Source: Patescibacteria group bacterium (GTDB lineage: Bacteria; Patescibacteriota; Patescibacteriia; JAHJFT01). Taken from it: a DNA stretch of 64,000 nucleotides. The notes beneath the pieces are model-generated. The model did no database searches. It saw only the letters and a list, made by a program, of their open reading frames with translations, and was not told where the DNA came from. Below, piece after piece: positions 13,553 to 41,854 of this stretch. Positions within the stretch are counted from its first letter, which is position 1; every line of letters begins with the position of its first letter. The translations under genes and the position numbers were made by a program. The stretch covers positions 19,280-83,279 of the forward strand of contig JAQTTB010000001.1 in NCBI GenBank assembly GCA_028710985.1. Reading direction: 5' to 3'.

Positions 13553-13613
13553 ACTCTTGAAATTTTATCTAATATTAGTTAATATATGCCCACAAGCACA
13601 TATATTATCTCCT

Positions 13614-14993: not shown

Positions 14994-15002
14994 AAAAATA
15001 AC

Positions 15003-15036
15003 AAAAAATAGGTGTTTGCAGACACCTATTTTTTTA
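15003..15036. terminator. Bidirectional rho-independent terminator between convergent genes
   Basis: AAAAAATAGGTGTTTGCAGACACCTATTTTTTT has a 9-bp stem flanked by an A-run and a T-run. Confidence 0.75.
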
Positions 15037-15038
15037 CA

Positions 15039-15956: not shown

Positions 15957-16054
15957 ATTACCGATCTTTATTTATTTAAATTATTGTAGCATAGACTGAA
16001 TCTTTTGACAAGGGCGGCTAATTCGGATAAAATATTGAATATTCATAAAGACCC

Positions 16055-17308
16055 ATGGAAATCAAATTAATAAAAATCGCTGAAAAATTTTTCAAAACCG
16101 ACATTAATTATTTAATTAAGGGCGGCTTTTGGCTTACTTCCGGGCAAATCCTTACTTCGCTGTCATCTCTAATTTTAGCAATCGCTTTTGCCAATTTGCT
16201 GGAAAGAGAATCTTATGGCACCTATAGATATATTCTTTCCGCAATCGGCATCATTTCGCTCTTTACTCTTCCGGGAATAAATACCTCTTTGATAAGATCG
16301 ATAGCGAATAATTTTTCCGGATCCTACCTGAAGGCAATTAAGACAAAGTTTAAATTTTCACTGATTGCCACTATAGCTTGCTTAATAGTCGGAATATATT
16401 ATTTTTATTGCCAAAATAATGAAATTGCCTTTTGTTTCTTTATTATTGCATCCATTATCCCTTTCAATAAATCATCCGAACTCTATTTGTCTGTACTGAA
16501 CGGCCAGAAAAGATTTAAACTCTATACTATTCTATATGCGAGTTCAAATATTATTGCAACGTTGTCAATAATCTTAACTTTATTTTTCACGGATAGTTTA
16601 GCGCTAATTTTAACGTCGTATTTCTTATCTTATACGATCCTGCAATTAATATTTTCTTTGTACGTAAAAAAATACCTAAACAACAATGAGGCTGATAATA
16701 CCGTTGAATATGGCATTCATTTGAGCATAATGGATGTAATCAAAACGATCGCCGGACATCTCGACAGGATACTCATATTCAACGCAATGGGACCGTTAGA
16801 GGTGGCTATTTACTCTTTTGCCGTTGTCCCGCATAGCCAGGCAAAAAGTTTCCTCGAAAATATTAAAGTCCTCGCTTTCCCCAAACTTAGCGCGTCCAAC
16901 GAGGAGGATATAAGAAAATTTTTACCAAAAAAAATTCTAAAAATGGAGCTCATAATCGCAATCTTGGTAATCATCTACATCTTCGCCGCTCCGACCCTAT
17001 TCCAAATATTTCTCCCGAAATACATGGATTCGGTCCTCTATTCCCAAGTGTACTTTATCTCGTTGATATTTTTCCCAAGAACAATTTTATCTACCGCAAT
17101 GACCGCAAAAATAAAAAAGAAAGAACTTTATTCCATAAGAATCCTCAGTCCAATACTAAGAATTATACTGATGGTCGTCGGATTAAAATTCTTTCAACTT
17201 TGGGGCGTACTCGTCGCGGGTATGGCGGCAAATGCGCTCATGATGTTAATCTACGGCTATTACTTTAAAAAAGCATTCAAGCAAATCACTTATCAATCAT
17301 CTCTCTAG
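16055..17308 (+). CDS. Oligosaccharide flippase, Wzx / MOP superfamily
   Basis: It is 417 aa with about 12 TM helices. The N-terminus KGGFWLTSGQILTSLSSLILAIAFANLL is typical of polysaccharide biosynthesis (Wzx-like) proteins. This is the first gene of the AT-rich block. Confidence 0.7.
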   Translation: MEIKLIKIAEKFFKTDINYLIKGGFWLTSGQILTSLSSLILAIAFANLLERESYGTYRYILSAIGIISLFTLPGINTSLIRSIANNFSGSYLKAIKTKFKFSLIATIACLIVGIYYFYCQNNEIAFCFFIIASIIPFNKSSELYLSVLNGQKRFKLYTILYASSNIIATLSIILTLFFTDSLALILTSYFLSYTILQLIFSLYVKKYLNNNEADNTVEYGIHLSIMDVIKTIAGHLDRILIFNAMGPLEVAIYSFAVVPHSQAKSFLENIKVLAFPKLSASNEEDIRKFLPKKILKMELIIAILVIIYIFAAPTLFQIFLPKYMDSVLYSQVYFISLIFFPRTILSTAMTAKIKKKELYSIRILSPILRIILMVVGLKFFQLWGVLVAGMAANALMMLIYGYYFKKAFKQITYQSSL

Positions 17309-18071
17309 AAAAAAGACTGTTGCGGGGATATATCAGCAAGATCTGAAATAGCAAATATACTATCGAAAAAATGATATATAGACCATACATCCATACTCCA
17401 TATCTAATATCGTACAAGCAAACCAATAATATCAATAAATACCATATCCATACGAAGTCGTAGATCATACTTACCGAATAGTTAAGAAATTTCATAAAAA
17501 CCTTTTTACCCGTAAAGAGGTTTTTATTATAATCCCTGAGGACATCCTGATGATTTTCAAGAGTAACTTTATATTTGATATGATGCCTCAACTTACCTAG
17601 CATTTTATAGTTAGTGAGCAATATGGAAAAAACAATGCTCGAAATTAATATCAGCATGTTCTGCGTAAGAACATAAAGAAAAACGCCCGTAGAAAAAGTC
17701 AAGGCAAACGGATAATAGAAATGAAATAATATCTCGTAATATATTCCCCTCTGAGTATAATGCTCACGATATCGGGCAATACCACCGTCTACCTTATCCA
17801 ACATTGATGATATTCTCATCAAAATAAGCTGGATAAAATATATCCAGAAAGGATCTACGGCAAATAACAGTAAATTAATAAAAAGGGAGATAATCAATAA
17901 CGCCACATTCAAAACGGACACGAAGTTGGGCGAAATTTTTGGAAAAATATTTAACAAAATAAATGTTATATACAAGGCCAGATAGCGTTCTGCGCGGTAT
18001 ATAATACCGCTCTTTTTTATTTTTTCCTGCTTGCCCAAGAAACATTTATCCCTCAGCTCAGAAAATGTCAT
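17286..18071 (-). CDS. Polytopic membrane protein with a partial CDP-alcohol phosphatidyltransferase-like motif
   Basis: DKVDGGIARYREHYTQRGIYYE resembles the D-G-x2-A-R-x8-G-x3 core of the CDP-OH transferase motif, but the final Asp is not evident. It has multiple TM helices and is very AT-rich. Confidence 0.35.
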   Translation of the reverse strand: MTFSELRDKCFLGKQEKIKKSGIIYRAERYLALYITFILLNIFPKISPNFVSVLNVALLIISLFINLLLFAVDPFWIYFIQLILMRISSMLDKVDGGIARYREHYTQRGIYYEILFHFYYPFALTFSTGVFLYVLTQNMLILISSIVFSILLTNYKMLGKLRHHIKYKVTLENHQDVLRDYNKNLFTGKKVFMKFLNYSVSMIYDFVWIWYLLILLVCLYDIRYGVWMYGLYIIFSIVYLLFQILLIYPRNSLFSREMIDK

Positions 18072-19177
18072 ATAAATTTAAATAATTTAATTAGTTTATC
18101 CGTCTGCTGTGATAAGGAAAAATTATCACGGACATGGGAAAATGCCGCCATCCCCATTTTATTTCTAGTTTCACTATCCAGCATTTTCTTTATAGCATTA
18201 CTGATTTGATCTTCATTGCCACGCTCAATAATAAACCCATTCACATTATCAAGCACTATCTTATTTATTCCCCCTACGGCAGTTGAAATAACCGGCAATC
18301 CACATGACATGGCCTCCAGTACGGCATTTGGACAACCCTCATTTTTAGAGTATAAAATAAAAATATCGGCCAATAGATACTGTTCTTTTAATTCCTCTCT
18401 ATCCAATAAACCGGTAAAAATAACTTTTTCTGCCAGCCCTAAATCAAGCGCAATTTTTTCGAAATGCTGCCGCAATTGACCCTCGCCGACGAGAACAAGT
18501 CTGGCGATAGGCAGACCCCGATCCACCATTTTTTTAAAAAAATAAATTAATTGTTCCTGGCCCTTGTTCTCATTTTTCATCGAGCCCACATTCAATAACG
18601 TTACCCGGTCAATTTTTTTACCTTTTCTTAATTCCCCCAATGCTCCTTCGGATATTTCAATTTCGACTCCATTATTAATAACAATCATCCGGTTTCGATA
18701 GAATGGCTGATACTTGACTAGGCTGTTCATTACTTCTTCTGAAACGGCGATTATCCTATAGCAACAAAAATTTAAAAAAACATCGATTATCCTTAAAAAC
18801 AAACTCTTTCGATCCGCCATCCCCGATTCTCGAATTAAAACCCTCAGCCTCGGATTAAAAATTTTCAAAAGTCTAGCAACGACGTTCGCCACATCTAGGG
18901 TAGAATAAACAAATTTTATATTGTTAGTTTTCACAAAAAGCAGGGTTCGATAAAATGATCTAACGTCAAATAAATACTTAAAATTAAAACTCACTACTTC
19001 ATTTTTTATTCGTAATTTGGAAACGAAGGTCTGTTCGGCGCGAAAAATCGTAGCAAAAAAAATATTAAATCCCTGCGCCGATAAATAGTTAGCCTGTTTT
19101 ATAAAATAAGTTTCGGCGCCGCCGACACCCAATCCGTTTATCAAAAGTAATATATTTTTAGTTGCAGATTCTTTCAT
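18068..19177 (-). CDS. Glycosyltransferase family 4
   Basis: LLINGLGVGGAETYFIKQANYLSAQG is typical of GT4. The C-terminus reads VLVGEGQLRQHFEK...ILYSKNEGCPNAVLEAMSCGLPVIST. Confidence 0.8.
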   Translation of the reverse strand: MKESATKNILLLINGLGVGGAETYFIKQANYLSAQGFNIFFATIFRAEQTFVSKLRIKNEVVSFNFKYLFDVRSFYRTLLFVKTNNIKFVYSTLDVANVVARLLKIFNPRLRVLIRESGMADRKSLFLRIIDVFLNFCCYRIIAVSEEVMNSLVKYQPFYRNRMIVINNGVEIEISEGALGELRKGKKIDRVTLLNVGSMKNENKGQEQLIYFFKKMVDRGLPIARLVLVGEGQLRQHFEKIALDLGLAEKVIFTGLLDREELKEQYLLADIFILYSKNEGCPNAVLEAMSCGLPVISTAVGGINKIVLDNVNGFIIERGNEDQISNAIKKMLDSETRNKMGMAAFSHVRDNFSLSQQTDKLIKLFKFI

Positions 19178-19178
19178 A

Positions 19179-19847
19179 TCAGTTACACCGCACCACGGCC
19201 CATATTTCCCCCCAATTTATTTTGTAATCCGATATAGACATTCCGGCTGAATTCAGCTCTTCGGAAAAGTCATTAAAAGTATATTCAATAAAATGATTCC
19301 GATCCAATCGATATTCAAGTCCAAGCTCTTTTTTATACGGCACTAACCAATCCCGATTAATCATCGGCACGCGTATTAAAGCGATATCGCAAATATTTTT
19401 TATTTGCTTTAAAAGAGAAGTCCTATCATCTATATGCTCCAGTACATTAGATACTACGACGCGATCAAATTTTTCATTAAAACTATACTGTGTCGCATCG
19501 GCGACAATATATTCAACGTTTGGCAACGCGCAGTGCGATTTTGCATACTCAATACTGGTTTTATTCATATCAATCCCCACGACTCTTTTGGCCTTTTTGG
19601 CAATCTCGCGGGTCAAAATACCATTACCGCAGCCAATATCAAGGACGGTGTGCGATGGCTCGATATTATTTAGAAAAAAATCGTGATATTCAGTGAGGCG
19701 ATGCTTTGGATGTATCCCCCCCTCTCGCAATGAAGCGACCGTGACAATTTTATGCAATGCCCAATCGTGCAAATAAAATAATCGCCTCAGGATCCAGAGG
19801 GATAAATTTTTATTTTTAAACGCTCTTTTTAATAAATCCTTTAGCAT
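19179..19847 (-). CDS. Class I SAM-dependent methyltransferase
   Basis: Motif I is VLDIGCGNGILTREIAKKAKRVVGIDMN. Confidence 0.75.
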   Translation of the reverse strand: MLKDLLKRAFKNKNLSLWILRRLFYLHDWALHKIVTVASLREGGIHPKHRLTEYHDFFLNNIEPSHTVLDIGCGNGILTREIAKKAKRVVGIDMNKTSIEYAKSHCALPNVEYIVADATQYSFNEKFDRVVVSNVLEHIDDRTSLLKQIKNICDIALIRVPMINRDWLVPYKKELGLEYRLDRNHFIEYTFNDFSEELNSAGMSISDYKINWGEIWAVVRCN

Positions 19848-20775
19848 ATTCTTTTAATGTGGAACTAATAATACTTTTTTTCTTTGAAAAAATCAGCATC
19901 TTTTCAAACAAATCATAAAAATGTTCCAATTCCTGTTCATTTTTCACATAAGGGCTTCCGCCGATCATCAGCTCGCTTGAATGCACCATAAAAACAGCTA
20001 CGGGAAAATTTTGTCTGAGTAAAGCTTCGAGCACAGACCTTATTTCATCAAAACTTGAGTTTGAGAATATCCTCAACCACCGCTGTTTAAAAAATAATTT
20101 ATTTAATACTTTTTTCAATAACGAATCCGGCAATAAAGCAAATGACCTAGAAATATATGAGGCCTCTCCAACGAAAGGTGAGGTAAACGCAACTGTCATC
20201 GGCACCTCCAATACCCCGTCCACTACCGAGGGCATCAGCGACGAACCGCGAAAATCCGGTCCCCGTCTATCGTGGCCGCCGGAAGAATTATTCTTCCATG
20301 ATATCTTTGGGGTTACCGAGCTGTCGGCGATATAGCCCAATTTATTCAAAAATCGCATTATCCGAATATCATAACCCCAGCGTCCGGCTCGATGAGTCTT
20401 TGGACTTATGCCAAAATTTTCCGCAATCGCCTTTGTTAAAGATGATAATTTTTTGTACAGCTCTTCGTCTTCAAGCTCATTAGGAAAACGATGCTTCAGC
20501 ATTTCCCATTCCCTGTCCTTCACACAAGGCGGTGTTGTCCAAGGATGCAAATGAGCCCCAACTTCCGCTGACCCGGAATCCTGAAAAGGCTTAAGAATAT
20601 TTACCGATTCTCTATCTACCGCAACCTCATAAGTTATAAAATATGTCGGTTTAAAGCGATATTTTTGGCAAAGCTCCTGGAAGCGAGGCAGAAATTTAAT
20701 ATTTTCAAGTGTAATTTCCTCAGATCTTTTCCACTGGTTGTCCGCCTCAACATCAACGGTTATTATTAATTTCAT
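19816..20775 (-). CDS. Polysaccharide deacetylase/deformylase-like protein, CE4 / ArnD-like
   Basis: MKLIITVDVEADN and a His-containing block (VGAHLHPW) resemble CE4-type deacetylases. The similarity is weak. Confidence 0.35.
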   Translation of the reverse strand: MKLIITVDVEADNQWKRSEEITLENIKFLPRFQELCQKYRFKPTYFITYEVAVDRESVNILKPFQDSGSAEVGAHLHPWTTPPCVKDREWEMLKHRFPNELEDEELYKKLSSLTKAIAENFGISPKTHRAGRWGYDIRIMRFLNKLGYIADSSVTPKISWKNNSSGGHDRRGPDFRGSSLMPSVVDGVLEVPMTVAFTSPFVGEASYISRSFALLPDSLLKKVLNKLFFKQRWLRIFSNSSFDEIRSVLEALLRQNFPVAVFMVHSSELMIGGSPYVKNEQELEHFYDLFEKMLIFSKKKSIISSTLKEYAKGFIKKSV

Positions 20776-22406: not shown

Positions 22407-22408
22407 AT

Positions 22409-23521
22409 TTATCCTAAAATCTTCATTAAATCATTATAAAACCGATCGGGGTTATACTGATTCTTTATCAATTCAAAGCCGGCATTTCCCATTTTTATTA
22501 AGTTGTGCTGATCCGAAATAGTCAGGCGAATCTTATCTATTAAATCGACCAAATTTTTACTTTCAAAGATGTAACCATTCACGCCATTCTCAATATATTC
22601 CTTCGTTCCATTTTCGCTCGAACTAATAACCGCCAGTTTGCAACTCATTGCTTCAACTATCGAAAAAGCCGCGGCTTCACCATAGCTCGGTAAAATGAAT
22701 ACATCATTTACTTTATATTCTTCATAAACATCCTTCCAATTAATATCAAATTTCACCTTCACAATTTCCGATAAATTATTAACTTTAATGTACTCTAATA
22801 ATTCATTTGTATATTCATTCTCATCCCTTTCGCCGACTAATGTAAGATTAATATTAAAATTATCTTTTAATTTTTCAACGGCCTTAACTAATAAAATCTG
22901 ATTCTTGCGCTCTTGGAATTTACCTACGCAGATAATATTAACCCATCCGCCAATAAAATACTCCTTGTTGAAGTCAAGCGCTTCATGAACAAATGGAATA
23001 TAAAAAAGATTCTTATTCTTACTTGCATAAGCGTCGTTACCCCTCAATGGAGTAATTACCGACGCCTTCCACAAAAAACCAACCAGCCAAATCGAGAAAC
23101 TCTTGATTTTTTTTCTAAATTTTTCAATTTGAATTAAAAAAATAATTTTTTTAACACCCAGGAACCGACTTAGAAGCGCGCCAAGGATTGAATAAAGACT
23201 ATCAATATTTTTTATCAGCACAACGTTCGGCCGATATTCCTTTATCAAATGATATAGTGAAAATATGGGTGGATAGCTATATCGTATCTCGAACCGATTC
23301 TTAATTGTGCGTCCACCCCGCTTATTGAATATTCTATTAAATAGCTTAAAAATATTCGAATATCCAACAACTCGCGGTTCTAGAATATCATAGCATTCTG
23401 ATTTTCCGCGATACATAACAAACATGGCCACTTCGTGTCCAAATGACTGAAGGGCCTCAATCATGTAGAAAAAATTTGTATGATATCGCGGGGTAAGAAA
23501 TAAAAATTTCATTGATTTCAA
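22409..23521 (-). CDS. Glycosyltransferase family 4
   Basis: The C-terminal block LTLVGERDENEY...FILPSYGEAAAFSIVEAMSCKLAVISS...NGVNGYIF is typical of GT4. Confidence 0.75.
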   Translation of the reverse strand: MKSMKFLFLTPRYHTNFFYMIEALQSFGHEVAMFVMYRGKSECYDILEPRVVGYSNIFKLFNRIFNKRGGRTIKNRFEIRYSYPPIFSLYHLIKEYRPNVVLIKNIDSLYSILGALLSRFLGVKKIIFLIQIEKFRKKIKSFSIWLVGFLWKASVITPLRGNDAYASKNKNLFYIPFVHEALDFNKEYFIGGWVNIICVGKFQERKNQILLVKAVEKLKDNFNINLTLVGERDENEYTNELLEYIKVNNLSEIVKVKFDINWKDVYEEYKVNDVFILPSYGEAAAFSIVEAMSCKLAVISSSENGTKEYIENGVNGYIFESKNLVDLIDKIRLTISDQHNLIKMGNAGFELIKNQYNPDRFYNDLMKILG

Positions 23522-25224: not shown

Positions 25225-26050
25225 TTAGAGAAATGAAAAATATGAGCACGGCGCTTAACATGAGGAATATGCTGAAATTACCAACAAAATTATCGCCTAC
25301 AAGATCATATATACCCTTGGCGAAACCGACTGTAAAGAATGCAATTCCAAACGGTATTAAAAATTTTAATGGTTGAAAATAGAAGGCAATTTTAAAAATT
25401 AAATTTATGTAAGTAAAAAAATTCCACGGCCTAATACCAGACTCGCCCACCCTTTTGTGATAGTCGATTGGCAGGAATTTGACTAAGTAATCATTCTTTA
25501 AAAACGCCATAGTAATGGTTGACGTAAATGAATATCGGCTGGGATACAATCCCCAAAACTCAAAACAGATATCTTTTTTGAAAAGCCTCATCCCCGAATT
25601 CAAGTCAGGTATTTTTCTATTGACAAGCCATCCCGCAAACCAATTTACAAATTTTTTCGGAACCCGTCTAATAAATTCGGTATGGTTAACCTTCGTCACT
25701 CTTGCACCGACAATCATGTCATAAGAATCCATGAACGGAAAAAAATCCGATAGCTTCTCTACGGGATAAGTGCCATCGGCATCGATAATAAAAATCCACT
25801 TGCCGGCTGCGGTTTTAATCCCCCTTTTCAAGGAGGCTCCGTAACCTAAATTATATGGATTGCGAATAATCTTTATATCTGATCGTGATTCTAATGTTTT
25901 CAGAGTGCCATCCTCGCTCTTATCATCAATGGCAATTATTTCAAAAGTATGTGATGTACACTTTTCGGCAACTCGTGCCAGTCCATCCAAAACATTCGCA
26001 ACCGTCGCTTCTTCGTTATAACATGGGATAACAATTGAAATTTCACTCAT
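25193..26050 (-). CDS. Glycosyltransferase family 2, GtrB/DPM1-like with C-terminal TM helices
   Basis: ISIVIPCYNEEATVANVLDGL...IIAIDDKSEDGT...FIIDADGTYP is typical of GT2. It has 2 C-terminal TM helices. Confidence 0.8.
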   Translation of the reverse strand: MSEISIVIPCYNEEATVANVLDGLARVAEKCTSHTFEIIAIDDKSEDGTLKTLESRSDIKIIRNPYNLGYGASLKRGIKTAAGKWIFIIDADGTYPVEKLSDFFPFMDSYDMIVGARVTKVNHTEFIRRVPKKFVNWFAGWLVNRKIPDLNSGMRLFKKDICFEFWGLYPSRYSFTSTITMAFLKNDYLVKFLPIDYHKRVGESGIRPWNFFTYINLIFKIAFYFQPLKFLIPFGIAFFTVGFAKGIYDLVGDNFVGNFSIFLMLSAVLIFFISLIADLLFKQRK

Positions 26051-26054
26051 ATAA

Positions 26055-26981: not shown

Positions 26982-27080
26982 ATTTTTTTATAATCCACCG
27001 GAAACTGCTTCTCATAAATTGGCAATAAATAATCAAATTTTCCCCACTGATATCCGAATCTCTCTTCAGAACCCATACAT

Positions 27081-28913
27081 TTATAATTCAAGCTTATTTT
27101 TACGGTAAAATTTTACAAAACTTATCAAACCCCACAACTCTCTACTATAATCTTTCTTATTCCCCATATGATCCGCAACCATTTTTTCAATCGCTTTACC
27201 ATTTAAAAATGCTATATCCGCAATATTCTTTTTATCTAAAATATCCATCATGAAATCCTTTAATTCATTCTTCAGCCAATCCGCGATCGGAAAGCTGAAT
27301 CCCTGCTTCTTTGTATAAATTAACTTTTTCGGTAAATACCTCTCTAGAAGCTTTTTTAAAATATACTTAGTGGTGATACCGCGAATTTTTAATCCCGGCG
27401 CCAAGGAATTGCTAAACTTTATTACTTCGTTGTTCAAGAAAGGAACACGTACCTCTAAAGAATTAGCCATGCTCATTCGATCGACCTTGACTAAATACTC
27501 CCCTTCCAGCACGGTTTTCTGATCAACATACAATAGCTGATTCAGCACATCTTCCCCCTCCACGACTTTAAAATACTCTGCAAAATCGTCGCAAACATTG
27601 TTAAAAAAATCTTCAACTAGGATATCCGCATTATGCATTATTCTATAATAAAAATGAGATTTTGTAAATGGATACTTGGCCGCATAAACAAACCTTTTTA
27701 ACTTATAATCAAAGCTCATTTTTCTGTAAGAAGACGGCAAATAATGAACCATTTTTTCCACCAATGTTTTTATGGGCAGGTGGCGATAAATTTGACTAAT
27801 TCTAGGCAAATAATAGATAGGGTAACCCCCAAATAACTCATCCCCGCCGTCGCCGGATAAGCAGACTGTCGCTCGCTCTTTTGCAAAATGGCACAAGAAA
27901 TATGTGGGAATCGCGCTGCTGTCACCAAAAGGCTCCTGAAAATAATCAAAAATATCCGGAATGGCATTTATGACCTCCCTCTTCTCTAGATAAATCGAAT
28001 TATGATTAGTGCCAATAATCTTTGCGATTTTACTGGCGTTCTTTGATTCGTCATAAGAATTCTCACCGAAATTAAATCCAACCGTAAATGTATTCAGGTT
28101 TCCTACATGCTCCTTGGCGATGGCGGTGATTAAACTAGAATCAACGCCGGAGGATAAGAATACCCCCAATGGCACATCGCTGACCAAGGATTGTTCGATT
28201 GATTCATCGAGCACGCACCGTAGGGCATCGATTGAATTATTAAGATCTTGATAATTATTTGTAAATGTCGGTTTCCAATATTCCTGAATATTAATTTGCT
28301 CTTTCTGCAAATCAAAAATCGCAAAACTAGCCGGTGGCAATTTAAAAACGTTTTCAATTATGGACTCATTGCCATAAATGTAATTTTGATAAAAAAATCT
28401 TCTGACTGCCCTTAAATTAATTTTTTTGTTGATCTGGAGCGATGCCAGCTCAGAGGCGAATTGAAATATCCCGTCATGAAAACTATAGTAAAGTGGTTTT
28501 ATTCCCATTCGATCTCTGGCCAAAATTAATTGATTTTTAACTTCATCGTAAATTGCCAGGGCGAACATGCCATCGAATAATTTGAAGGCTTCTGGTCCAT
28601 ATTTAATATAGGCCCTTAATACAACCTCCGTATCGGAATCGGAGAAATAGTCACCGGGCAAATCTTTTTTTAATTTTTTAAAATTATATACTTCACCATT
28701 GTAGACAATCGCATAGGCGCCAATTCTCATGGGTTGGCTCGCCCTTTGAGAAAGATCAATGATAGAAAGACGCCGGTGTCCTAATTTGACCCTCTGATCT
28801 TCGGATATAAAAAAACCTGCCGCATCCGGACCGCGGTGGAGCATTGAATCTCTTCTCTTCAAAAAAATTTCCTTATCAAATTTCGATGAATATTCTCCGA
28901 TAATTCCGCACAT
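27081..28913 (-). CDS. asnB: Asparagine synthase (glutamine-hydrolysing)-family amidotransferase
   Basis: The N-terminal nucleophile is MCGIIG, and the synthetase domain carries the PP-loop SGGVDSS (LSSGVDSSLITAIA). Length is 610 aa. Confidence 0.85.
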   Translation of the reverse strand: MCGIIGEYSSKFDKEIFLKRRDSMLHRGPDAAGFFISEDQRVKLGHRRLSIIDLSQRASQPMRIGAYAIVYNGEVYNFKKLKKDLPGDYFSDSDTEVVLRAYIKYGPEAFKLFDGMFALAIYDEVKNQLILARDRMGIKPLYYSFHDGIFQFASELASLQINKKINLRAVRRFFYQNYIYGNESIIENVFKLPPASFAIFDLQKEQINIQEYWKPTFTNNYQDLNNSIDALRCVLDESIEQSLVSDVPLGVFLSSGVDSSLITAIAKEHVGNLNTFTVGFNFGENSYDESKNASKIAKIIGTNHNSIYLEKREVINAIPDIFDYFQEPFGDSSAIPTYFLCHFAKERATVCLSGDGGDELFGGYPIYYLPRISQIYRHLPIKTLVEKMVHYLPSSYRKMSFDYKLKRFVYAAKYPFTKSHFYYRIMHNADILVEDFFNNVCDDFAEYFKVVEGEDVLNQLLYVDQKTVLEGEYLVKVDRMSMANSLEVRVPFLNNEVIKFSNSLAPGLKIRGITTKYILKKLLERYLPKKLIYTKKQGFSFPIADWLKNELKDFMMDILDKKNIADIAFLNGKAIEKMVADHMGNKKDYSRELWGLISFVKFYRKNKLEL

Positions 28914-28919
28914 AGATAC

Positions 28920-29399
28920 TTAATTCTCTTTAAAGCAAAAAACGAATCTTTTATTAATTAAAAATGTAAAAAAGGACATTAATAATCCGACCAGGGCAAC
29001 GGATAAAAGGTAATAAAAACCTAAAATAGTTGTTAGCAAATAGACCAAAGTGAAGGTAATTAATCCTATTGCGCCATATATCGCGAGATAACCAAGGTAC
29101 CTTGCAACATAACCTGATTTTCCATGACCAGAAAATGTAAATAATGAATTCATTATAAAACTAAAAGTCCAGGTAATAAAAGTTGCGATTACAAAAGATA
29201 ACATGTACCAAAAATGCAGTGATTCAGTAAAAATGAAAGTTAATAATAAATTCAACAAAAAAGAACTGACTCCAATGATGAAAAATATCGGATATCTCCT
29301 AAAGATATTTATTATATTCAAAGCCATCTTGAAAAAATTAATAAAGTCACGCTTCAACAATTTTCTTTTTACGACCTCCGAATTTCCATGAATTGCCAT
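28920..29399 (-). CDS. GtrA-like small membrane protein
   Basis: It is about 135-159 aa with 4 TM helices. The true start may be the internal Met at 29327, which would remove the 53-nt overlap with the upstream gene. Confidence 0.5.
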   Translation of the reverse strand: MAIHGNSEVVKRKLLKRDFINFFKMALNIINIFRRYPIFFIIGVSSFLLNLLLTFIFTESLHFWYMLSFVIATFITWTFSFIMNSLFTFSGHGKSGYVARYLGYLAIYGAIGLITFTLVYLLTTILGFYYLLSVALVGLLMSFFTFLINKRFVFCFKEN

Positions 29400-30783
29400 T
29401 TCTCATCTGAATATAAATTGAATTCAAATCAATTTCTGAATTACTTCTCAACCATCGTTCGATAAGATCCCTTGATAAATATGTAGTTGTTGGCGTTACC
29501 AATTGGTCAAAAACAATGTGGTGAAAAAAAATAAAGTTCTCCTCGGAAATCCAAACGGTATATTGATATAATGGTAATTTTTTTACAAAAGAAATACTTT
29601 TAAGTATATTGATTATTTTAGAGTAAAGAAAAAATAAAATAGCCAATGGGCCAGCGATAAAATATTTATTTAACCACCATGGTGTATGACAAACAATGCG
29701 ACGAAGTCGATCGATGACGTTTATTATTATCCAATTGCCTTCTTCCGCATAAACCCAGCAATGAAAACGACCGCCGGGTATAGTATTTTTAATTACAAAA
29801 TTAAAACCCAACTCCGGCTCCTTTAAATGATGGAGAACGCCAATACAATAAACAACATCGAACCCACCTTCGCTGAATTGTAAAATATCATCCTGAATAA
29901 TCCTATATTTTGTATTTTTGATATCTTCTAAATTTTTTCTCGCCGAATCGACGGAAGCACCTAAGTCAACCCCAACCATTTCACGCGGCTGCCAATTTGC
30001 TAAATGCACCATCAGGCTGCCATTGCCGCAGCCGAGCTCTAATATTTTATTTCCAGAAAAATCATTCTTGGTCAGTGGATGCATCCAATCCTCGAACTGT
30101 TTAAATGTATATATTGAACCAGCGACCAGATGATTCCACGATTTGGCAAATGCATCTGCCGTACCCTGATCCGGACTAGCAATAGCTTCATTCAGCTCCT
30201 TGGAGTGTGATTTTACACAAACGAATTCAAACGAAATCTCATCAAATCCCCCAACCCAAAAGCACCATATTCTGCTGCAAAAAACCTGGTTAAAATTAGC
30301 TAAACCGCTAATAAATTTATCTACTATTTTCAGTAGTTGCGTGGAAATTTCGCCATAACCCAAATATTGCAATAAATGCGGAAAAGCCATCCACCGCAGT
30401 TCCATTCTTTTCAGCCTAAATTCGACGCCGATATATCCAGATGAAGTATACTTTTCATTAAAGTAAAGGGGGAAAGCAACATCAAAACCGTGTGCATGTT
30501 GAGCGTGCGTAAAGCCGCGAGAAAAATGCGGCACTTTCAATTTTAAAATGCCGCCGTCTCTTAAAATTCTGTGCATCTCTTTCATCACCTCGAACGGTTT
30601 ATCGAGATGCTCCAAAACATGATAAGCCTCAATCAAATCAAAGCTATTCGATTCAAATGGATAAGGCAAACTGTTCAGGTCATGGATAACATCCGGTGAA
30701 ACTAACGGATTGATGTCAACATTGATATAATCGCTCTTTTTTGACGCACCGCATCCTAAATTTAATTTGTTCGTACTTTTCAT
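29347..30783 (-). CDS. Tandem double class I SAM-methyltransferase protein
   Basis: There are two separate motif-I regions: LNLGCGASKKSDYINVD...LIEAYHVLEHL in the N-terminal half and ILELGCGNGSLMVHLAN...VVYCIGVLHHL in the C-terminal half. Confidence 0.65.
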   Translation of the reverse strand: MKSTNKLNLGCGASKKSDYINVDINPLVSPDVIHDLNSLPYPFESNSFDLIEAYHVLEHLDKPFEVMKEMHRILRDGGILKLKVPHFSRGFTHAQHAHGFDVAFPLYFNEKYTSSGYIGVEFRLKRMELRWMAFPHLLQYLGYGEISTQLLKIVDKFISGLANFNQVFCSRIWCFWVGGFDEISFEFVCVKSHSKELNEAIASPDQGTADAFAKSWNHLVAGSIYTFKQFEDWMHPLTKNDFSGNKILELGCGNGSLMVHLANWQPREMVGVDLGASVDSARKNLEDIKNTKYRIIQDDILQFSEGGFDVVYCIGVLHHLKEPELGFNFVIKNTIPGGRFHCWVYAEEGNWIIINVIDRLRRIVCHTPWWLNKYFIAGPLAILFFLYSKIINILKSISFVKKLPLYQYTVWISEENFIFFHHIVFDQLVTPTTTYLSRDLIERWLRSNSEIDLNSIYIQMRNGNSWKFGGRKKKIVEA

Positions 30784-30800
30784 AACTGGATTTAAAATGT

Positions 30801-31754
30801 CTAAAAATTAATTTTAGATTTTAAAACGTACGGTTTCTCCCCTCGCGATTCATAATAAGTGCGCATGATCAATTCCGCTAAAACACCCATGGCGATAAGC
30901 TGTATGCCGACAATGATAAATAAAGCAGTCAATATCGGCAATGGAGTCTCCACGAAACTTCTTAATCCAAAAATTTTAAGCACAATCGCAGATAGGCCGG
31001 CCATAATCCCGACAAAAAGCGCGATAAACCCCATCCCTCCAAAAAAATGCATCGGCTTATTCAAATACTTTTCAAAAAATTTTATAACTACCAAATCCAG
31101 TAAAACTCTAAAAATTCTAGATAAACCATAATTGCTCCGACCGGCTTTTCTTGGACGATAGTTTACCTCCACTTCTGTCAGATTAGCGCCTTGGCGTACG
31201 GCATAAGCCGGTATAAACCGATGCATTTCTCCATAGAGGGAAAACCCGTGTAATATTTTTTTTCTATATGCCTTCAATGTGCATCCATAGTCATGCAACT
31301 TAACATTAGTAATTCTTGAAATCAACCAGTTCGCCATGAGGGAGGGCAGTCTACGACTTAATTTATTCTTTTGCCAACGCCCGCGACGCCACCCGGAAAC
31401 AACGTCATACCCGTTATTAATACGCTCCAAGAGCCTTGGAATATCGGCCGGGTCATTTTCTAAATCACTATCCATGGTCACGATTATATCACTGCTCGCA
31501 TATTCAATCCCGGCTTGAAGCGCGGCGGTTTGTCCGCGATTTACCGCAAAACTTAAAACCTTAATTTTATTATTATCGCCCGCTAGTGATTTTAACACGG
31601 CCAAAGAATTGTCGCTCGACCCATCGTCAACCAGAATTATTTCATAATCATAACTATTCCTCTCCATTACGGACACGATCTCTCGGACCAATTCCAATAA
31701 ATTTTTTTCCTCATTATAGACTGGTATAACAATCGATAAATGCATATTTCCCAT
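30801..31754 (-). CDS. Glycosyltransferase family 2, GtrB/DPM1-like with C-terminal TM helices
   Basis: LSIVIPVYNEEKNLLELVREI...IILVDDGSSDNS...VTMDSDLEND is typical of GT2. It has 2 C-terminal TM helices. Confidence 0.82.
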   Translation of the reverse strand: MGNMHLSIVIPVYNEEKNLLELVREIVSVMERNSYDYEIILVDDGSSDNSLAVLKSLAGDNNKIKVLSFAVNRGQTAALQAGIEYASSDIIVTMDSDLENDPADIPRLLERINNGYDVVSGWRRGRWQKNKLSRRLPSLMANWLISRITNVKLHDYGCTLKAYRKKILHGFSLYGEMHRFIPAYAVRQGANLTEVEVNYRPRKAGRSNYGLSRIFRVLLDLVVIKFFEKYLNKPMHFFGGMGFIALFVGIMAGLSAIVLKIFGLRSFVETPLPILTALFIIVGIQLIAMGVLAELIMRTYYESRGEKPYVLKSKINF

Positions 31755-33418
31755 TAAAATTTAATTAAAACAAAATATTCATTTTGCGATATGGGAAGAT
31801 CCCCTTGATCCCCTTCTTTCACCACTCCGGCTAACGCTGAGTTCGAACGCAATAGCGCATAATTTGCCCCATATTTACGACCAAAATCTATCAACTTAAC
31901 GATATCGTCACCGTGTAGGGCATTGTTTTGTTCTTCAAATACTCTGCGCCATTCTACCAATTGATTCTTGCCCGACATTAAATATGCGGATCCCTCTTCA
32001 AAGGAAGTAACTATATTAACCCTGCAGAAATAACGCAAATTAAAATCATTACTAATCACGGTATCCCCGTCGCCGACACCGCCGTTTTTAAGTTGCTGGC
32101 AAACTATATTATATATCTTTTCCTGGTCTTCAAACACCTTATTTTGAAATACCCTGGGTATATATTCCTCCTGATAATTCTCATAACCTAATAAAAATTG
32201 AAACCATTCGAAGCCAAAGGAGGAGCTCAAAAAGCCCAAAATGAGCAGGGCGGATAAGAAAATTACTCGAACTTTTTTTTGTAAAAAATATCTATTGCGT
32301 CTAAATAATTCTTCCAGTGAAACAGCCACTAATAAAAATATACCAAAGTAAACAAATTTAAAAAATCGACTAGTTTGCTGAAAAATAAACGGACCATCCA
32401 AATGGATCATCGCTATTTGTAGTATTGGAAAAAATACACTAAAAAATATTGAGAGCAGTATAAATAAAATTGACCACTTTGCGATAAGATAATCCAAGGA
32501 TTCTTTTATGATTAACCTCTTTTTCAAGAGGTACAAAACATATGCAACGAATGGCGCAAAGAAAACAAGAATAATTATCATATGCCGTATCCACATAAGG
32601 CTCTCCGGCGGATAATCCCATGGCGTCCTAAAAATTATCGCTTCCAAGAAGTCTAAGCTTGAGTATTCAACATTAGATAAAAATTTGGAATTTATTGCAT
32701 CTAAACGAAAAATTATTTCATACAACAGCAAGGATGAACCAAGAATAAATGCAGCTGACGCTGATGCGGTCTGTTTCAAAACACCAAAAAAATTATTGCG
32801 CCAAAATAAAAGAAATAAAGATATTACGAGAGCTAGAAAAGTAAAAAATAATATGCTTACCGGATGAATATAAGAGACTATACCGAGCAATAAGAACAAC
32901 GGCCAAATTTTCTTATTGTCGTAAATAAATTTAATAATTAATGCACCGATTATCCATAAGAATGGCATCGCCGTCGAACGTCCCAAAACTTCATAATTCG
33001 TGAGAACTCCGAATATTTCGTTCCCGACCGAAAAGCGCGGGGCAAGGGCTACTATAGCTACAACGATCGCGATTGAACGCCGTATGCCCAATATTCTAAG
33101 CGCAATATACGCCGAATAACCAGTAAAAAAAACCATAGAAAATAATAGTATATTGCGGCTGGTAAATGGATCAAAGAAATAACTCAACGCATTAATAATA
33201 TATGGATAAACGTAGTATCGATACGTCATCGTGGACAATAATTCATTTCCTGGATAAGAACTATCCATTAAAGCCCGGTTAGACGCCATAATGGCAATCT
33301 CATCGCCATTGAGTCTAAACGGCAGGGAAAAATTATAAACAACCGACAGAGCGGCAATAAACAAAAAAATCAATATTACACATAAATTGACGATTCCAAC
33401 ATTTTTACGCTCTGACAT
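31754..33418 (-). CDS. Large polytopic membrane protein; candidate GT-C-like enzyme
   Basis: A 554-aa ORF with more than 10 TM helices and a soluble C-terminal domain of about 150 aa. I recognised no motif. Confidence 0.35.
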   Translation of the reverse strand: MSERKNVGIVNLCVILIFLFIAALSVVYNFSLPFRLNGDEIAIMASNRALMDSSYPGNELLSTMTYRYYVYPYIINALSYFFDPFTSRNILLFSMVFFTGYSAYIALRILGIRRSIAIVVAIVALAPRFSVGNEIFGVLTNYEVLGRSTAMPFLWIIGALIIKFIYDNKKIWPLFLLLGIVSYIHPVSILFFTFLALVISLFLLFWRNNFFGVLKQTASASAAFILGSSLLLYEIIFRLDAINSKFLSNVEYSSLDFLEAIIFRTPWDYPPESLMWIRHMIIILVFFAPFVAYVLYLLKKRLIIKESLDYLIAKWSILFILLSIFFSVFFPILQIAMIHLDGPFIFQQTSRFFKFVYFGIFLLVAVSLEELFRRNRYFLQKKVRVIFLSALLILGFLSSSFGFEWFQFLLGYENYQEEYIPRVFQNKVFEDQEKIYNIVCQQLKNGGVGDGDTVISNDFNLRYFCRVNIVTSFEEGSAYLMSGKNQLVEWRRVFEEQNNALHGDDIVKLIDFGRKYGANYALLRSNSALAGVVKEGDQGDLPISQNEYFVLIKF

Positions 33419-33430
33419 ATTTTATGAAAA

Positions 33431-34159
33431 TTATTTTCTACATATCGCCATCAACGAAACGCCGAATGGAAAATTAAAACGCTTCAATACAAACGCTTCC
33501 AGGGAAAACACCCAAAATAATATACGAGATAAGGGGCCGCCGCTGCCGACAAATTCGATTTTCTTAACAGAAAAAAAAGCTTTTTCGAAAAAACGGAAAA
33601 ATAATATTGGCAAAAATAAAATGGTATTAAAATACGAAGAACGTACAACGTGCAAACCCAAACTCCGTAATTTTACAAAAATTTGATTGTAGGTATAACG
33701 GCGAAAATGATGTCCCGCCTCATCGGCCCAGCCCCACAAAAAATTAAAAGCAGGAACAAAAATAATAATTATTCCTTCTTTTTTTACTACACGTTTCAAT
33801 TCACTAATAGCTTTATTATCATCAGACACGTGTTCTAATACATCGAGGCAAATCACAACATCAAAAAAATTATCTGGAAATTGAATATTCGTAATATCTC
33901 CCAAATCGACATTCTCTAAAAAATTTTGTTTACAAAAATTAACGGCCAACGGGCTATTATCAACGCCATAACAAACACCGAATTTTTTGAGCTCCTTCAT
34001 CAGCATACCCGTGCCACAACCGACATCGAGCATCTTCAATGCACCACTATGGTCAGAAAAAAAATTACTGATTATATCAGCTACAATTCTTCGCCTCACC
34101 CTATACCACCAATTATCTTTTTCAGCTGTATAAATTAATTTATAGACGTCAGATCGCAT
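33431..34159 (-). CDS. Class I SAM-dependent methyltransferase
   Basis: MLDVGCGTGMLMKELKKFGVCYGVDNS and LDVLEHV are methyltransferase motifs. Confidence 0.75.
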   Translation of the reverse strand: MRSDVYKLIYTAEKDNWWYRVRRRIVADIISNFFSDHSGALKMLDVGCGTGMLMKELKKFGVCYGVDNSPLAVNFCKQNFLENVDLGDITNIQFPDNFFDVVICLDVLEHVSDDNKAISELKRVVKKEGIIIIFVPAFNFLWGWADEAGHHFRRYTYNQIFVKLRSLGLHVVRSSYFNTILFLPILFFRFFEKAFFSVKKIEFVGSGGPLSRILFWVFSLEAFVLKRFNFPFGVSLMAICRK

Positions 34160-34166
34160 AACTTTA

Positions 34167-35237
34167 TTAAATATTCTTATCTGGATAAAAATTATCCATC
34201 AAACGCTCAATTAAAAAATCCAAACTATGCTCGCGGATTATAATTTCTCTCAATCCCTTGCCTAACGCCACCCGCCTGTCTACATCCATAGTCAATAAAT
34301 TTATCAATTTATTCTTAAAATCATTCACGTCATCCTCCTCAAAAACCATCGGCTCAGGCAAAACATCCTTTAGCGCCCTATTTGATACCAGCACCGGCAT
34401 TTCACAGGCCATGGCTTCAAAAATTGTCTTATCCATGCTCCCGCTCTGTGTAAAATTAACATAAAGCGCGTGTTGGTTATAAATGTTCGATGTCTCACGA
34501 TATGGCACGCCAGGATAAAAAGAAAGCATTCCTGCGCCCTCCAGCTCCTTGCCCGCTCCCCTGACTCTTTGATAATATTCCGCATCGGAATCGGTCGGAT
34601 CGCCATAGATACTCGCCGTAAAGCCAATTCCTTGGCCATGCAGATCAGACAAAGCGTTAACAAACATTTCGACTTTCTTAACTGGCGATATTCTCCCCAG
34701 AAACAATACGGATTTTTCATATTTCGCCGATGGATCGAAACCTTTAAATATATCTGTGTCGATCCCAACGGGCATAATCCTTGCTTTTTTATACCGCGAG
34801 CAAAACGAATTTGGTGAAGTGTAGAATACGTTATTGGAAAATAAGACGCCAAACCTAGTTATGATATTACCAATCTTGTGATTGTGCCATAGAAAAATTT
34901 TTTTATTAAAAATTCTCCACAATATACCGGCCATAACAATATATTCCGGATTCATATGGACAAAAATAACGTCGTAATCCCTAATTAGAAAAATAATATT
35001 TTTATAAAATTCGATAATATAGCCAACCCGACTCTTCCTTTTTTCCTTTTCCAGGGATATAACTCGCACATTGTTTGGCAAATTATATTTTCCTGACTCT
35101 AGACAAACTACGTTAACAGTATCAAACGATGGGCTAATCTTCATAATCCAGTTATGAAAAAATCCAAGCACTTTATCGTCCCTGTCAACCTTCTGAGTAA
35201 TAATTAGCAGATTTATTTTTTTATCGCCTTGTCCCAT
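34167..35237 (-). CDS. Glycosyltransferase, GT4/GT1-like Glycos_transf_1 domain
   Basis: The C-terminal block LFLGRISPVKKVEMF...TQSGSMDKTIFEAMACEMPVLVSN is typical of this domain. Confidence 0.7.
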   Translation of the reverse strand: MGQGDKKINLLIITQKVDRDDKVLGFFHNWIMKISPSFDTVNVVCLESGKYNLPNNVRVISLEKEKRKSRVGYIIEFYKNIIFLIRDYDVIFVHMNPEYIVMAGILWRIFNKKIFLWHNHKIGNIITRFGVLFSNNVFYTSPNSFCSRYKKARIMPVGIDTDIFKGFDPSAKYEKSVLFLGRISPVKKVEMFVNALSDLHGQGIGFTASIYGDPTDSDAEYYQRVRGAGKELEGAGMLSFYPGVPYRETSNIYNQHALYVNFTQSGSMDKTIFEAMACEMPVLVSNRALKDVLPEPMVFEEDDVNDFKNKLINLLTMDVDRRVALGKGLREIIIREHSLDFLIERLMDNFYPDKNI

Positions 35238-36337
35238 GTTTCGTTATAAAGTTTTAATGTCGCCTCCTTGCCCGGAAGTCGCTCTAACGCGTTCTTGGCA
35301 TTTTGACTAAACTTCATTTTTAATTCAGGGTTATTCTTTACTTTGACCAATGCGTCAGAAATCGCACTTATATTATTTACCGGGACCACGATACCATTCT
35401 CATAGTTTTTTACCACCTCTCCGGCGCAACCGACGTCGGTCATGATAACTGCGCAGCTGCAAGCCAGGGATTCAATAGCCACCCTGCTCCATCCTTCGTA
35501 TTCAGAGGTCAATAAAACACAATCCGCTCCCTTAAAAAAACTCACAACGTCCTGGGTCCAGGGAATGAAAATCACCGATTCACCCAAGCCCAATTCGCCT
35601 ACCAATCTTTTTAATTCTTTTTCCTGACTCCCCTCGCCAACAATGAGCAAGCCGCTCTTAGGACTTTTTTTTAAGAACATTAAAAATGCTTTTAAGGCAA
35701 CGTCTATTCTTTTTACCCTCTCCAATCGCCCCATAACCAGAGCGATAAAATCAAATTGTGAATATTTTTCCTTTAGATTAAAATCCGGCTCCTTTAATTC
35801 CAGACTTTTCCAAGGTGTGCAAATCGGCAGAACCGTTATCTTTTCTTGATTAATCCCTCTCTTGATTAAGTCCCGCTTGATTCTCTGACTAACCGCTCTG
35901 ATAGAATCGGCCTTTTTTATAATTCCCAAGCCAAGATACCATCGTAGATTGTTCAAAAAATTTTCTCCGCGCCAATGAGGATTACTAAAAAAATCGCCAT
36001 GGAGTTGAATATTCAAACCTAAACCGAATTTTCTTTTAGCGAAATATCCGATTAACCCGATGGCAAACGGGTCTTGAACCGAAACGACATTAATATTGCT
36101 GCGCTTAATAATGCTGGCTGCTTCCCTCCACAATTTTAACCAGCCAAAAAATTTATTATTAACTCCCACGGATCGTACGAATACGTTGTCGGTTAATTGT
36201 ATATTCGTGCTACAACCAGCCGGCAGCAAAATATAAAATTTATTACCAATAAAATTGGCGTAACTCTTAAATCTCTCCTGTGTCTCGCTACCCGACTTTA
36301 AAATTCTTGCATCGGTGCCAATTATCAAAATGTTCAT
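35213..36337 (-). CDS. Glycosyltransferase family 4
   Basis: MNILIIGTDARILKSGSE and the C-terminal block LLIVGEGSQEKELK...LLTSEYEGWSRVAIESLACSCAVIMTDVG are typical of GT4. Confidence 0.75.
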   Translation of the reverse strand: MNILIIGTDARILKSGSETQERFKSYANFIGNKFYILLPAGCSTNIQLTDNVFVRSVGVNNKFFGWLKLWREAASIIKRSNINVVSVQDPFAIGLIGYFAKRKFGLGLNIQLHGDFFSNPHWRGENFLNNLRWYLGLGIIKKADSIRAVSQRIKRDLIKRGINQEKITVLPICTPWKSLELKEPDFNLKEKYSQFDFIALVMGRLERVKRIDVALKAFLMFLKKSPKSGLLIVGEGSQEKELKRLVGELGLGESVIFIPWTQDVVSFFKGADCVLLTSEYEGWSRVAIESLACSCAVIMTDVGCAGEVVKNYENGIVVPVNNISAISDALVKVKNNPELKMKFSQNAKNALERLPGKEATLKLYNETWDKAIKK

Positions 36338-40265: not shown

Positions 40266-40267
40266 AT

Positions 40268-41789: not shown

Positions 41790-41854
41790 TATATCACCCG
41801 TTTGACCACATTTTTCTTCTTTTCTCTTTTTCCTTATTTCTCAATACAACCCTC

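Follow-up and report, generated by a model that had tools for sequence, protein, structure and literature searches.

The DNA analysed here, called the window throughout, is a stretch of 64,000 nucleotides on a 744,538-bp contig (JAQTTB010000001.1) from a metagenome-assembled genome (MAG) of the Patescibacteria, or candidate phyla radiation (CPR). The subject is an AT-rich block of glycan-biosynthesis genes that a sequence-only reading had placed at positions 16055 to 36337 and had taken for a horizontally exchanged O-antigen or glycan island. The block is probably the variable centre of a large CPR surface-glycan locus, and its core cassette was probably acquired, through within-locus recombination, from a Parcubacteria-like donor of low GC. 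Horizontal exchange is supported by the foreign composition of the block, by the other genes that relatives carry in its place, and by the nearest syntenic cassettes, which lie in distant low-GC Parcubacteria. The O-antigen label fared less well; surface-glycan island fits better, since to our knowledge CPR/Patescibacteria lack lipopolysaccharide (LPS).

Base composition of the block and its edges

Regional GC in the window is 0.494 at 1-16000, 0.367 at 16001-36337, 0.421 at 36338-41254, and 0.492 at 41255-64000. When GC was computed in 1-kb windows, the values of the block (mean 0.367, s.d. 0.024, maximum 0.417, n = 20) did not overlap with those of the flanks (mean 0.496, s.d. 0.037, minimum 0.439, n = 37; Mann-Whitney U = 0, p = 6e-10). 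GC at third codon positions (GC3) averaged 0.377 (0.31-0.44) in 18 genes of the block versus 0.557 (0.52-0.63) for 13 flank glycan genes (U = 0, p = 3e-6). Pooled relative synonymous codon usage (RSCU) correlated at 0.94 when the flank glycan genes were set against the remaining genes of the flanks, and only at 0.26-0.28 when the block was set against the flanks. Furthermore, the 16-36 kb region deviates in tetranucleotide usage normalised for base composition. These data place the block far outside the variance of the flanks in GC, codon and tetranucleotide usage, in agreement with the compositional contrast first judged by eye. Because glycosyltransferase family 4 (GT4), family 2 (GT2), GtrA and epimerase genes in the flanks are of native composition, the shift is not explained by gene function.

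The left edge of the block is abrupt; GC falls from ~0.50 to 0.33 over the 98-bp spacer at 15957-16054, between an epimerase gene and wzx. This spacer holds a divergent promoter-like pair, TTGACA-17-TAAAAT (11/12) towards wzx and TTGTCA-17-TACAAT towards the epimerase gene, which are the best promoter-like matches of the region and are consensus matches only. The right edge is gradual. Genes at 36334-41789 have a GC of 0.38-0.44, intermediate values continue to ~41.9 kb, and the best two-boundary fit of the low-GC zone is 15760-41900. Thus the sharp left limit at wzx stands as first proposed, but 36337 is the end of the most AT-rich part and not of the compositional anomaly, and the right edge is a mosaic gradient rather than a clean junction at that position. 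Runs of A or T are indeed more frequent in the block than in the flanks; however, they are not long, as none exceeds 8 nt, and their excess over shuffled sequence is no higher than that of the flanks. Phase-variable homopolymer tracts were considered and rejected, because no A/T run in 15.9-36.3 kb is longer than 8 nt and the enrichment is within the compositional expectation also seen in the flanks.

Conserved anchors, replaced contents and a cassette in distant Parcubacteria

A contrast with non-glycan flanks had also been implied, but the block is nested in a glycan/envelope region that extends from ~7 kb to at least 64 kb; this locus spans at least 57 kb of the window. The left flank carries two GT4 genes, two GT2 genes, a GDP-mannose-dehydratase-like gene, a GtrA gene and the gene of the Bac_transf priming transferase, and the right flank carries genes for a GT4, a Wzy_C-TPR protein, an S8 peptidase, a 1259-aa Thr/Ala/Gly/Ser-rich protein, a DUF5667 protein, an ECF sigma factor and further GT4 enzymes. 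Past 36337 the operon-like run of genes continues through a radical SAM/SPASM gene, two GT4 genes and a DUF218 gene to an epimerase gene. The pgk gene reported for the flank was not seen among the annotated open reading frames (ORFs).

The word serotype, used in the first reading, presupposes exchange inside one species; clusters at 90% identity of ten flank and island proteins all hold this population alone, and a scan of GTDB genomes gave a best Bac_transf match of 46%. Family-level relatives were found with flank proteins. Distinct relatives of the Wzy_C-TPR protein group at 56-66% identity, and their loci (L024, L026 and L028) share the gene order ECF sigma factor, DUF5667, ~1260-aa protein, S8 peptidase, Wzy_C-TPR, GT4, in some cases a four-helix-bundle gene, and epimerase, at 50-72% identity. 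The epimerase gene at 40.3 kb is a conserved border, with 80-81% identity in L026 and L028. Inward from this anchor identity decays; the GT4 at 38446-39558 is 70% identical in L028 or else 34%, the GT4 at 37319 33-34%, the GT4 at 35213 45-48%, the GT4 at 34167 35% and the methyltransferase ~35%, after which unrelated genes follow (sulfotransferases in L024, an HTH gene and a GT4 in L028). The radical SAM and DUF218 genes of the transition zone are not in the relatives compared.

On the left, orthologues of Bac_transf at 62-65% identity were found in loci L029-L032, and the left flank recurs in the loci of JGI relatives, with two GT2 genes at 55% and 65%, the dehydratase-like gene at 77-80% and GtrA at 44-63%. 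Directly after Bac_transf, the relatives carry unrelated genes, and L030 and L066 are mostly without window homologues there. The epimerase gene at 15.0 kb is missing after Bac_transf in both of these loci. Conserved epimerase genes had been named as the borders of the island; this holds for the gene at 40.3 kb and not for the gene at 15.0 kb, and the left anchor is Bac_transf (13536-14993). Wherever annotated, the replaced genes in relatives are of glycan type, and the variable parts of the relatives are also AT-shifted, with a GC of 0.30-0.39 (from 0.43 to 0.31 in L024 and from 0.40 to 0.34 in L028). The locus comparison that had been proposed as a check thus found other genes at the same position in relatives.

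Three of the loci that hold homologues of the 568-aa polytopic protein of the block (L072, L073 and L074; GC 0.348, 0.365 and 0.338) are collinear with the window from 33.4 down to 13.5 kb. The shared order, with identities to the window, is GT-C-like (41%), ArnC-like GT2 (57%), AsnB (59-64%), GT2, methyltransferase, GT-C-like (50-52%), GT4 (48-51%), methyltransferase and FemAB-like (40-57%), deacetylase-like (50-52%), methyltransferase (47%), GT4 (41-42%), CDP-alcohol-transferase-like (37-41%), Wzx on the opposite strand (45-47%), epimerase (43-44%) and Bac_transf. The methyltransferase and FemAB-like parts are two adjacent genes in these loci and a single 544-aa ORF (20772-22406) in the window, and the epimerase of L073 and L074 is a positional counterpart of the 15.0-kb gene in the opposite orientation. 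Over the same 173 residues of the C-terminal stretch of Bac_transf, identity to the window is 77-79% for family-level relatives and 54% for L073, which places the carriers of the cassette at a greater distance than genomes without it. Wzx follows the cassette; identity is 45-47% to L073/L074 versus only 36-38% to the relative L030.

A core of the cassette was also present in a Vogelbacteria bin (L075), where GtrA, AsnB, methyltransferase, GT2 (56%), GT-C-like (42%) and GT4 genes lie beside a Wzy_C-TPR gene of its own. This core has a GC of 0.38-0.46 (mean 0.42), and the name of the bin presumably implies, by naming convention, a genome GC of ~44%. A copy with host-like GC indicates that AT-richness is not intrinsic to the cassette, and a GC of 0.367 beside flanks of 0.49 therefore points to a low-GC donor.

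The best-surviving alternative is that the cassette is ancestral and vertically inherited, was lost or replaced in the closer relatives, and owes its low GC to a locus-specific AT bias (weak codon selection, low expression). The AT shift in the variable regions of L024 and L028 fits such a history, as does the linkage of Bac_transf, epimerase, Wzx and cassette in L073/L074, which makes the arrangement old, and the cassette identities of 40-64% are not far under the flank identities of 50-80%. A locus-wide bias does not account well, however, for 13 flank glycan genes of the same class with native GC3 and an RSCU correlation of 0.94 versus 0.26 for the island, for a left transition confined to 98 bp, or for the host-like GC of the Vogelbacteria core, and at least four relatives' loci carry other genes beside the anchors. 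Vertical inheritance is thus unlikely, but it keeps a real minority share of the probability, since the comparison reached no further than distant relatives and 10-kb flanks.

Acquisition of the cassette by recombination is the reading we favour, and the direction and timing of the transfer are inferred. Several points weigh against it. The relatives' loci were read out to 10 kb either side of the anchors, and no genome in the collections searched exceeds ~65% flank-protein identity, such that replacement was seen across long evolutionary distances only and could be gradual gene turnover. A locus-specific AT bias is possible to some degree, since the variable regions of relatives are also of low GC. 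The GC contrast rests on the flanks inside the 64-kb window, the GC values of L072-L074 are those of the loci only, and the proxy for host distance, Bac_transf, is a gene of the locus itself. The cassette is 40-64% identical to donor-like lineages, only moderately below the 50-80% of the flanks to relatives, and no near-identical donor copy was found in the collections searched.

Under recombination within the locus, the left anchor would run from the GT2 genes through the GDP-mannose-dehydratase-like gene and GtrA to Bac_transf, and the right anchor would comprise the epimerase gene at 40.3 kb, the four-helix-bundle gene, the GT4 gene and Wzy_C-TPR, with a distinct AT-rich glycan gene set between them in each genome. 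The core at 16.0-33.4 kb, possibly to 36.3 kb, would be a cassette of 15-18 genes that most likely entered by recombination within the locus and not by a mobile element, and 36.3-41.8 kb would be a mosaic of ancestral and divergent genes.

A self-mobile genomic island (an integrative element, transposon or prophage remnant) inserted at a specific site is highly improbable. Only the contrast in composition and the discreteness of the left edge speak for it, but the 64-kb window holds no tRNA by tRNA scan and no Rfam match, and no flanking direct or inverted boundary repeats were found beyond chance-level AT-rich matches. Intergenic DNA in the island totals 292 nt, which leaves no space for an integrase or transposase, and all ORFs of at least 100 aa in 16.0-41.8 kb are glycan-pathway genes or the four-helix-bundle (23S_rRNA_IVP) gene. 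None of the marks of an integrative mobile island (integrase or recombinase, att repeats, tRNA target) was found in the window, and relatives have different contents between the same anchors at the same site.

An assembly or binning chimera, in which low-GC DNA of another organism was joined to a contig of 49% GC, would suit a MAG and an abrupt compositional step, but is so unlikely as to be negligible, because Logan contigs from three independently assembled runs (SRR22315506, SRR22315508 and SRR22315509) are 100% identical to the window over 13515-25956 and 31855-43080 and cross both the left junction and the right transition, gene functions fit together across the edges, with Wzx in the block and Bac_transf and Wzy_C beyond it, and relatives have the same architecture.

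In the Logan assemblies, the island lies on 28.4-kb contigs and a flank gene on 1.6-kb contigs. Spacers in the native-GC flanks contain a REP-like hairpin repeat, GGATTCCCGCCTTCGCGGGAATGAC, at 11746-11770(-), 11936-11960(+), 43240-43264(+), 57174-57198(+) and 57237-57261(-); a longer unit is common to ~43205-43265 and ~57139-57199, and the 11-mer of the repeat occurs 8 times versus ~1.9 expected. One copy falls exactly where Logan unitigs repeatedly end (11,932-11,936), and hairpins lie near 43,050-43,100. The Logan breaks at 13,514/13,515 and 43,080 were considered as strain-variable junctions, and this was rejected in view of the REP-like hairpin repeats in the flank spacers.

Gene content, GT-C-fold candidates and a putative glycan pathway

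Pfam assignments agreed with the gene inventory first drawn up for the island, with Wzx, four GT4 (18068, 22409, 34167 and 35213), two GT2 (25193 and 30801), GtrA, AsnB, weak matches to Polysacc_deac_1 and CDP-OH_P_transf, and polytopic proteins of 568 and 554 aa without a Pfam match. The count of five methyltransferase domains is to be corrected, as six domains are spread over five proteins. Coordinates of the features are collected in Table 1. Local duplication as the source of the island was rejected, because the best paralogue identity between island and flank is at most 37%.

Table 1. Features of the surface-glycan locus, in window positions
Feature	Coordinates	Strand	Basis and remarks
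Bac_transf priming phosphoglycosyl transferase	13536..14993	+	PF02397, E = 7e-62; native GC 0.50; left anchor
NAD-dependent sugar epimerase/dehydratase	15039..15956	-	Pfam; native GC 0.48
Spacer, 98 bp, steep GC drop	15957..16054	.	GC profile; promoter-like consensus matches
Wzx-type oligosaccharide flippase	16055..17308	+	PF01943, E = 8.5e-16, and PF13440; GC 0.356, first low-GC gene
CDP-alcohol-transferase-like membrane protein	17286..18071	-	PF01066, 23.0 bits (cutoff 22); half signature
GT4 glycosyltransferase	18068..19177	-	Pfam; 41-42% identity to L073/L074
SAM-dependent methyltransferase	19179..19847	-	Pfam; 47% identity to L073/L074
Polysaccharide-deacetylase-like protein, weak	19816..20775	-	PF01522, 24.5 bits (cutoff 23.1); 50-52% to L072-L074
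Trm112-like ribbon, methyltransferase and FemAB-like fusion, 544 aa	20772..22406	-	Domain matches; FemAB-like part weak
GT4 glycosyltransferase	22409..23521	-	Pfam; 48-51% identity to L072-L074
GT-C-fold glycosyltransferase candidate, polytopic, 568 aa	23518..25224	-	Predicted structure; no Pfam/NCBIfam match
GT2, GtrB/DPMS-like catalytic domain	25193..26050	-	PF00535; PDB GtrB 8e-15, DPMS 4e-13
Methyltransferase	26055..26981	-	Pfam
AsnB-type glutamine-dependent amidotransferase	27081..28913	-	PF00733, E = 3e-94; TIGR01536, 434 bits (cutoff 267); 59-64% to L072-L074
GtrA-like small membrane protein	28920..29399	-	PF04138
Double methyltransferase-domain protein	29347..30783	-	Two matched stretches
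ArnC/GtrB-type polyprenyl-phosphate GT2 with C-terminal transmembrane helices	30801..31754	-	PDB ArnC 7e-52, GtrB 2e-35; 57% to L073
GT-C-fold candidate, 554 aa; right end of collinear cassette	31754..33418	-	Predicted structure; remote paralogue of the 568-aa protein
Methyltransferase and two GT4	33431..36337	-	GC 0.35-0.40; origin ambiguous: relatives 35-48%, L073 GT4 only 33%
Transition zone: radical SAM/SPASM, GT4, GT4, DUF218	36334..40265	-	GC 0.38-0.44
Epimerase/dehydratase, start of right anchor	40268..41254	-	80-81% in L026, L028
Four-helix-bundle (23S_rRNA_IVP family) gene and GT4	41397..43021	+	55-62% orthologues in L024/L026/L028; GC back to native
Wzy_C (O-antigen ligase/polymerase family) and TPR membrane protein	43417..45660	-	PF04932 and TPR; relatives 56-66%

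The 568-aa and 554-aa proteins gave no Pfam match (E up to 5), no NCBIfam match and no PDB sequence match. Homologues of the 568-aa protein number 16 and come only from Parcubacteria-type CPR genomes (41-52% identity), and a profile search returned 20 representatives among 1.84 billion proteins; the 554-aa protein has four homologues among 5.8 billion clusters. The two families are remotely homologous over their full length (hhalign 98.2%, 17% identity), and each protein has 11-12 hydrophobic segments in a polytopic core followed by a soluble C-terminal domain. AlphaFold2 (AF2) models (pLDDT 85.6 for the 568-aa and 77.7 for the 554-aa protein) were searched with Foldseek. The top matches of the 568-aa model were AftA, PglB and ArnT at a probability of 0.97-1.0, and those of the 554-aa model were AftA, AftD, STT3, AftB, ArnT, AglB and Pmt4. 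For both, all matches at or above 0.87 were GT-C proteins (AftA, AftB, AftD, PglB, STT3, ArnT, AglB, PMT, ALG3) and other folds reached at most 0.21; TM-scores were modest (0.36-0.50). An invariant Asp lies in the first loop after the first transmembrane segment, as S47-D48-x-W50 in 16 sequences of one family and G38-D39-E in 5 of the other, and hhalign aligns the two motifs. The modelled folds suggest that both proteins are candidate GT-C-fold glycosyltransferases and remote paralogues in a very rare CPR family, one that by its sequence appears to be outside the described GT-C families (PMT_2, ArnT, YfhO, STT3).

Each GT-C-fold candidate adjoins a GT2 gene. Residues 6-312 of the GT2 at 30801-31754 align to ArnC (7e-52) and GtrB (2e-35), with transmembrane segments at 234-299; in the GT2 at 25193-26050 the PDB match covers the catalytic part only (GtrB 8e-15, DPMS 4e-13), and no transmembrane segment was detected. 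By analogy, the candidates, their GT2 partners and the GtrA-like protein resemble two GtrABC/ArnCT-type modules for extracytoplasmic glycan decoration. As a separate matter, the NCBI annotation PHW53_00200 (312 aa) is the C-terminal 55% of the 568-aa ORF from an internal Met start, so that the conserved Asp and the N-terminal helices are left out; this truncation may be a gene-calling error in atypical composition. In L073, a third polytopic protein of 564 aa (2213-3907) lies beside the two GT-C-like genes; it has no BLAST match to window proteins and may be a further divergent member of the GT-C-like family.

A priming transferase (PF02397, E = 7e-62) and Wzx (PF01943, E = 8.5e-16) are both present for assembly of the Wzx/Wzy type. 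The Wzy_C domain (PF04932) of the protein at 43417-45660 does not discriminate between polymerase, ligase and O-oligosaccharyltransferase, and from its domains the Wzy_C-TPR protein is likely a polymerase or a glycan-to-acceptor transferase. No Wzz/PCP chain-length regulator was matched among the 50 window proteins scanned, and no lipid A or core genes were found in the 64-kb window.

Taken together, we infer the following order of steps. Bac_transf would prime the repeat unit on polyprenyl phosphate, and the GT4 enzymes would lengthen it in the cytoplasm. The unit may be decorated by the methyltransferases, by the AsnB-type amidotransferase with the FemAB-like and deacetylase-like proteins, and by the CDP-alcohol-transferase-like protein. 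Some of these assignments count against the decoration step. In the protein at 17286..18071, D92-K-V-D-G-G-I-A-R is present but GxxxDxxxD is replaced by GxxxExxxH, and the full signature of CDP-alcohol phosphatidyltransferases (D-x2-D-G-x2-A-R ... G-x3-D-x3-D) is incomplete; the FemAB-like and deacetylase-like assignments are weak. Wzx would flip the unit across the membrane, and the Wzy_C-TPR protein of the flank would polymerise it or pass it to an acceptor, possibly the Thr/Ser-rich 1259-aa neighbour. Outside the membrane, the two GT-C-fold enzymes may attach side-branch sugars from lipid-linked donors made by the two ArnC/GtrB-like GT2 enzymes, with the GtrA-like protein presumed to aid translocation. 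The identities of the glycan and of its acceptor are put forward on the same footing.

Further features lie in the flanks. The 1259-aa protein (47778-51557, minus strand), which stands beside the S8 peptidase and Wzy_C-TPR genes, has an N-terminal signal or anchor, is rich in Thr, Ala, Gly and Ser, and has no Pfam domain. Its counterparts in relatives are 52-67% identical, and the gene is an outlier in tetranucleotide usage; the product is a candidate for a surface or S-layer protein and might accept the glycan. A 698-aa, very hydrophobic protein with ~15 predicted transmembrane segments and no Pfam match is encoded at 4975-7071 (plus strand) in the native-GC left flank, adjoining GT4 genes, and may be another envelope-glycan membrane enzyme. 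The four-helix-bundle gene at 41397-41789 (plus strand) has 61-62% counterparts at the same spot in L024 (13659-14039) and L026 (13920-14306), with a second copy in L026 (7559-7936), and is missing from L028. A high-GC patch at 55488-56699 (plus strand) deviates in the opposite direction to the island. It holds a 403-aa ORF with a TTG start (GC 0.61, GC3 0.74, 14.6% Asp, no Pfam match), overlapped by a 232-aa ORF on the opposite strand; no Rfam match was found in the patch, and no tandem repeats were found in the compositionally odd 47-57.6 kb.

Comparison with known systems and meaning for CPR

Replacement flexible genomic islands occupy a fixed site with differing gene clusters of similar function, which serve the glycosylation of exposed structures (PMC4033161). 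They are not particularly tied to integrases or insertion sequences, and exchange by recombination at the borders has been proposed (Lopez-Perez et al. 2014, PMC4033161). The locus described here resembles them in its fixed position, conserved borders, unrelated glycan gene sets and lack of mobility genes; however, those islands were defined among strains of one species with peaks of single-nucleotide polymorphisms at the borders, whereas here only family-level relatives are compared, and the host is a CPR bacterium. No description of such a replacement island in CPR was found by targeted literature searches, which is not proof of absence.

The Wzx/Wzy loci for O-antigen or capsule in Enterobacteria likewise combine a priming transferase, Wzx, a Wzy_C-family protein, serial GT4 and GT2 enzymes and epimerases with a low-GC centre flanked by conserved genes. 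The locus in the window differs from them in having no Wzz in the window and in a Wzy_C protein that carries TPR and lies in the conserved flank; in this host the glycan is probably attached not to lipid A-core but to a protein or a polymer of the cell wall. The GtrABC, ArnC/ArnT and CsbB/GtcA/YfhO systems share with the cassette a GtrA-like protein (PF04138), a full-length ArnC/GtrB-type GT2 and adjacent polytopic GT-C-fold proteins with a conserved Asp following the first transmembrane segment, but here two modules are found in one Wzx-type cassette and the GT-C proteins have no sequence-family match. The trio of AsnB-type amidotransferase, FemAB-like and deacetylase-like proteins recalls PEP-CTERM/XrtA exopolysaccharide loci, and the best NCBIfam match of the amidotransferase is TIGR03108 (E = 4e-141); however, its score of 472 is far under the cutoff of 817, FemAB and the deacetylase match only weakly, and no XrtA/PEP-CTERM component was found in the window.

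A low-GC, variable glycan locus is of a well-known kind, and the advance lies in the host lineage and the gene content, not in the principle. The genomes of CPR/Patescibacteria are very small, and these bacteria are assumed to live attached to other cells. In this one, a glycan block of foreign composition takes up ~26 kb of a 744.5-kb contig (~3.5%), within a glycan/envelope region of at least 57 kb, which suggests heavy investment in a variable surface, and the replacement-island logic of free-living bacteria appears also to operate at a fixed locus in this CPR group. The analysis defines a portable cassette common to Parcubacteria, and flags a very rare GT-C-fold family and its likely lipid-linked donor synthases for biochemistry. 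A more speculative possibility, which we hold only tentatively, is that the cassette forms a modular 'glycotype' unit specific to CPR, passed on whole from one Parcubacteria lineage to another and built on the new GT-C family, with its two paralogous subfamilies, in combination with the ArnC/GtrB-like synthases. If this were true, a swap of the cassette would re-code the surface glycan that these ultra-small episymbionts show to their hosts and phages.

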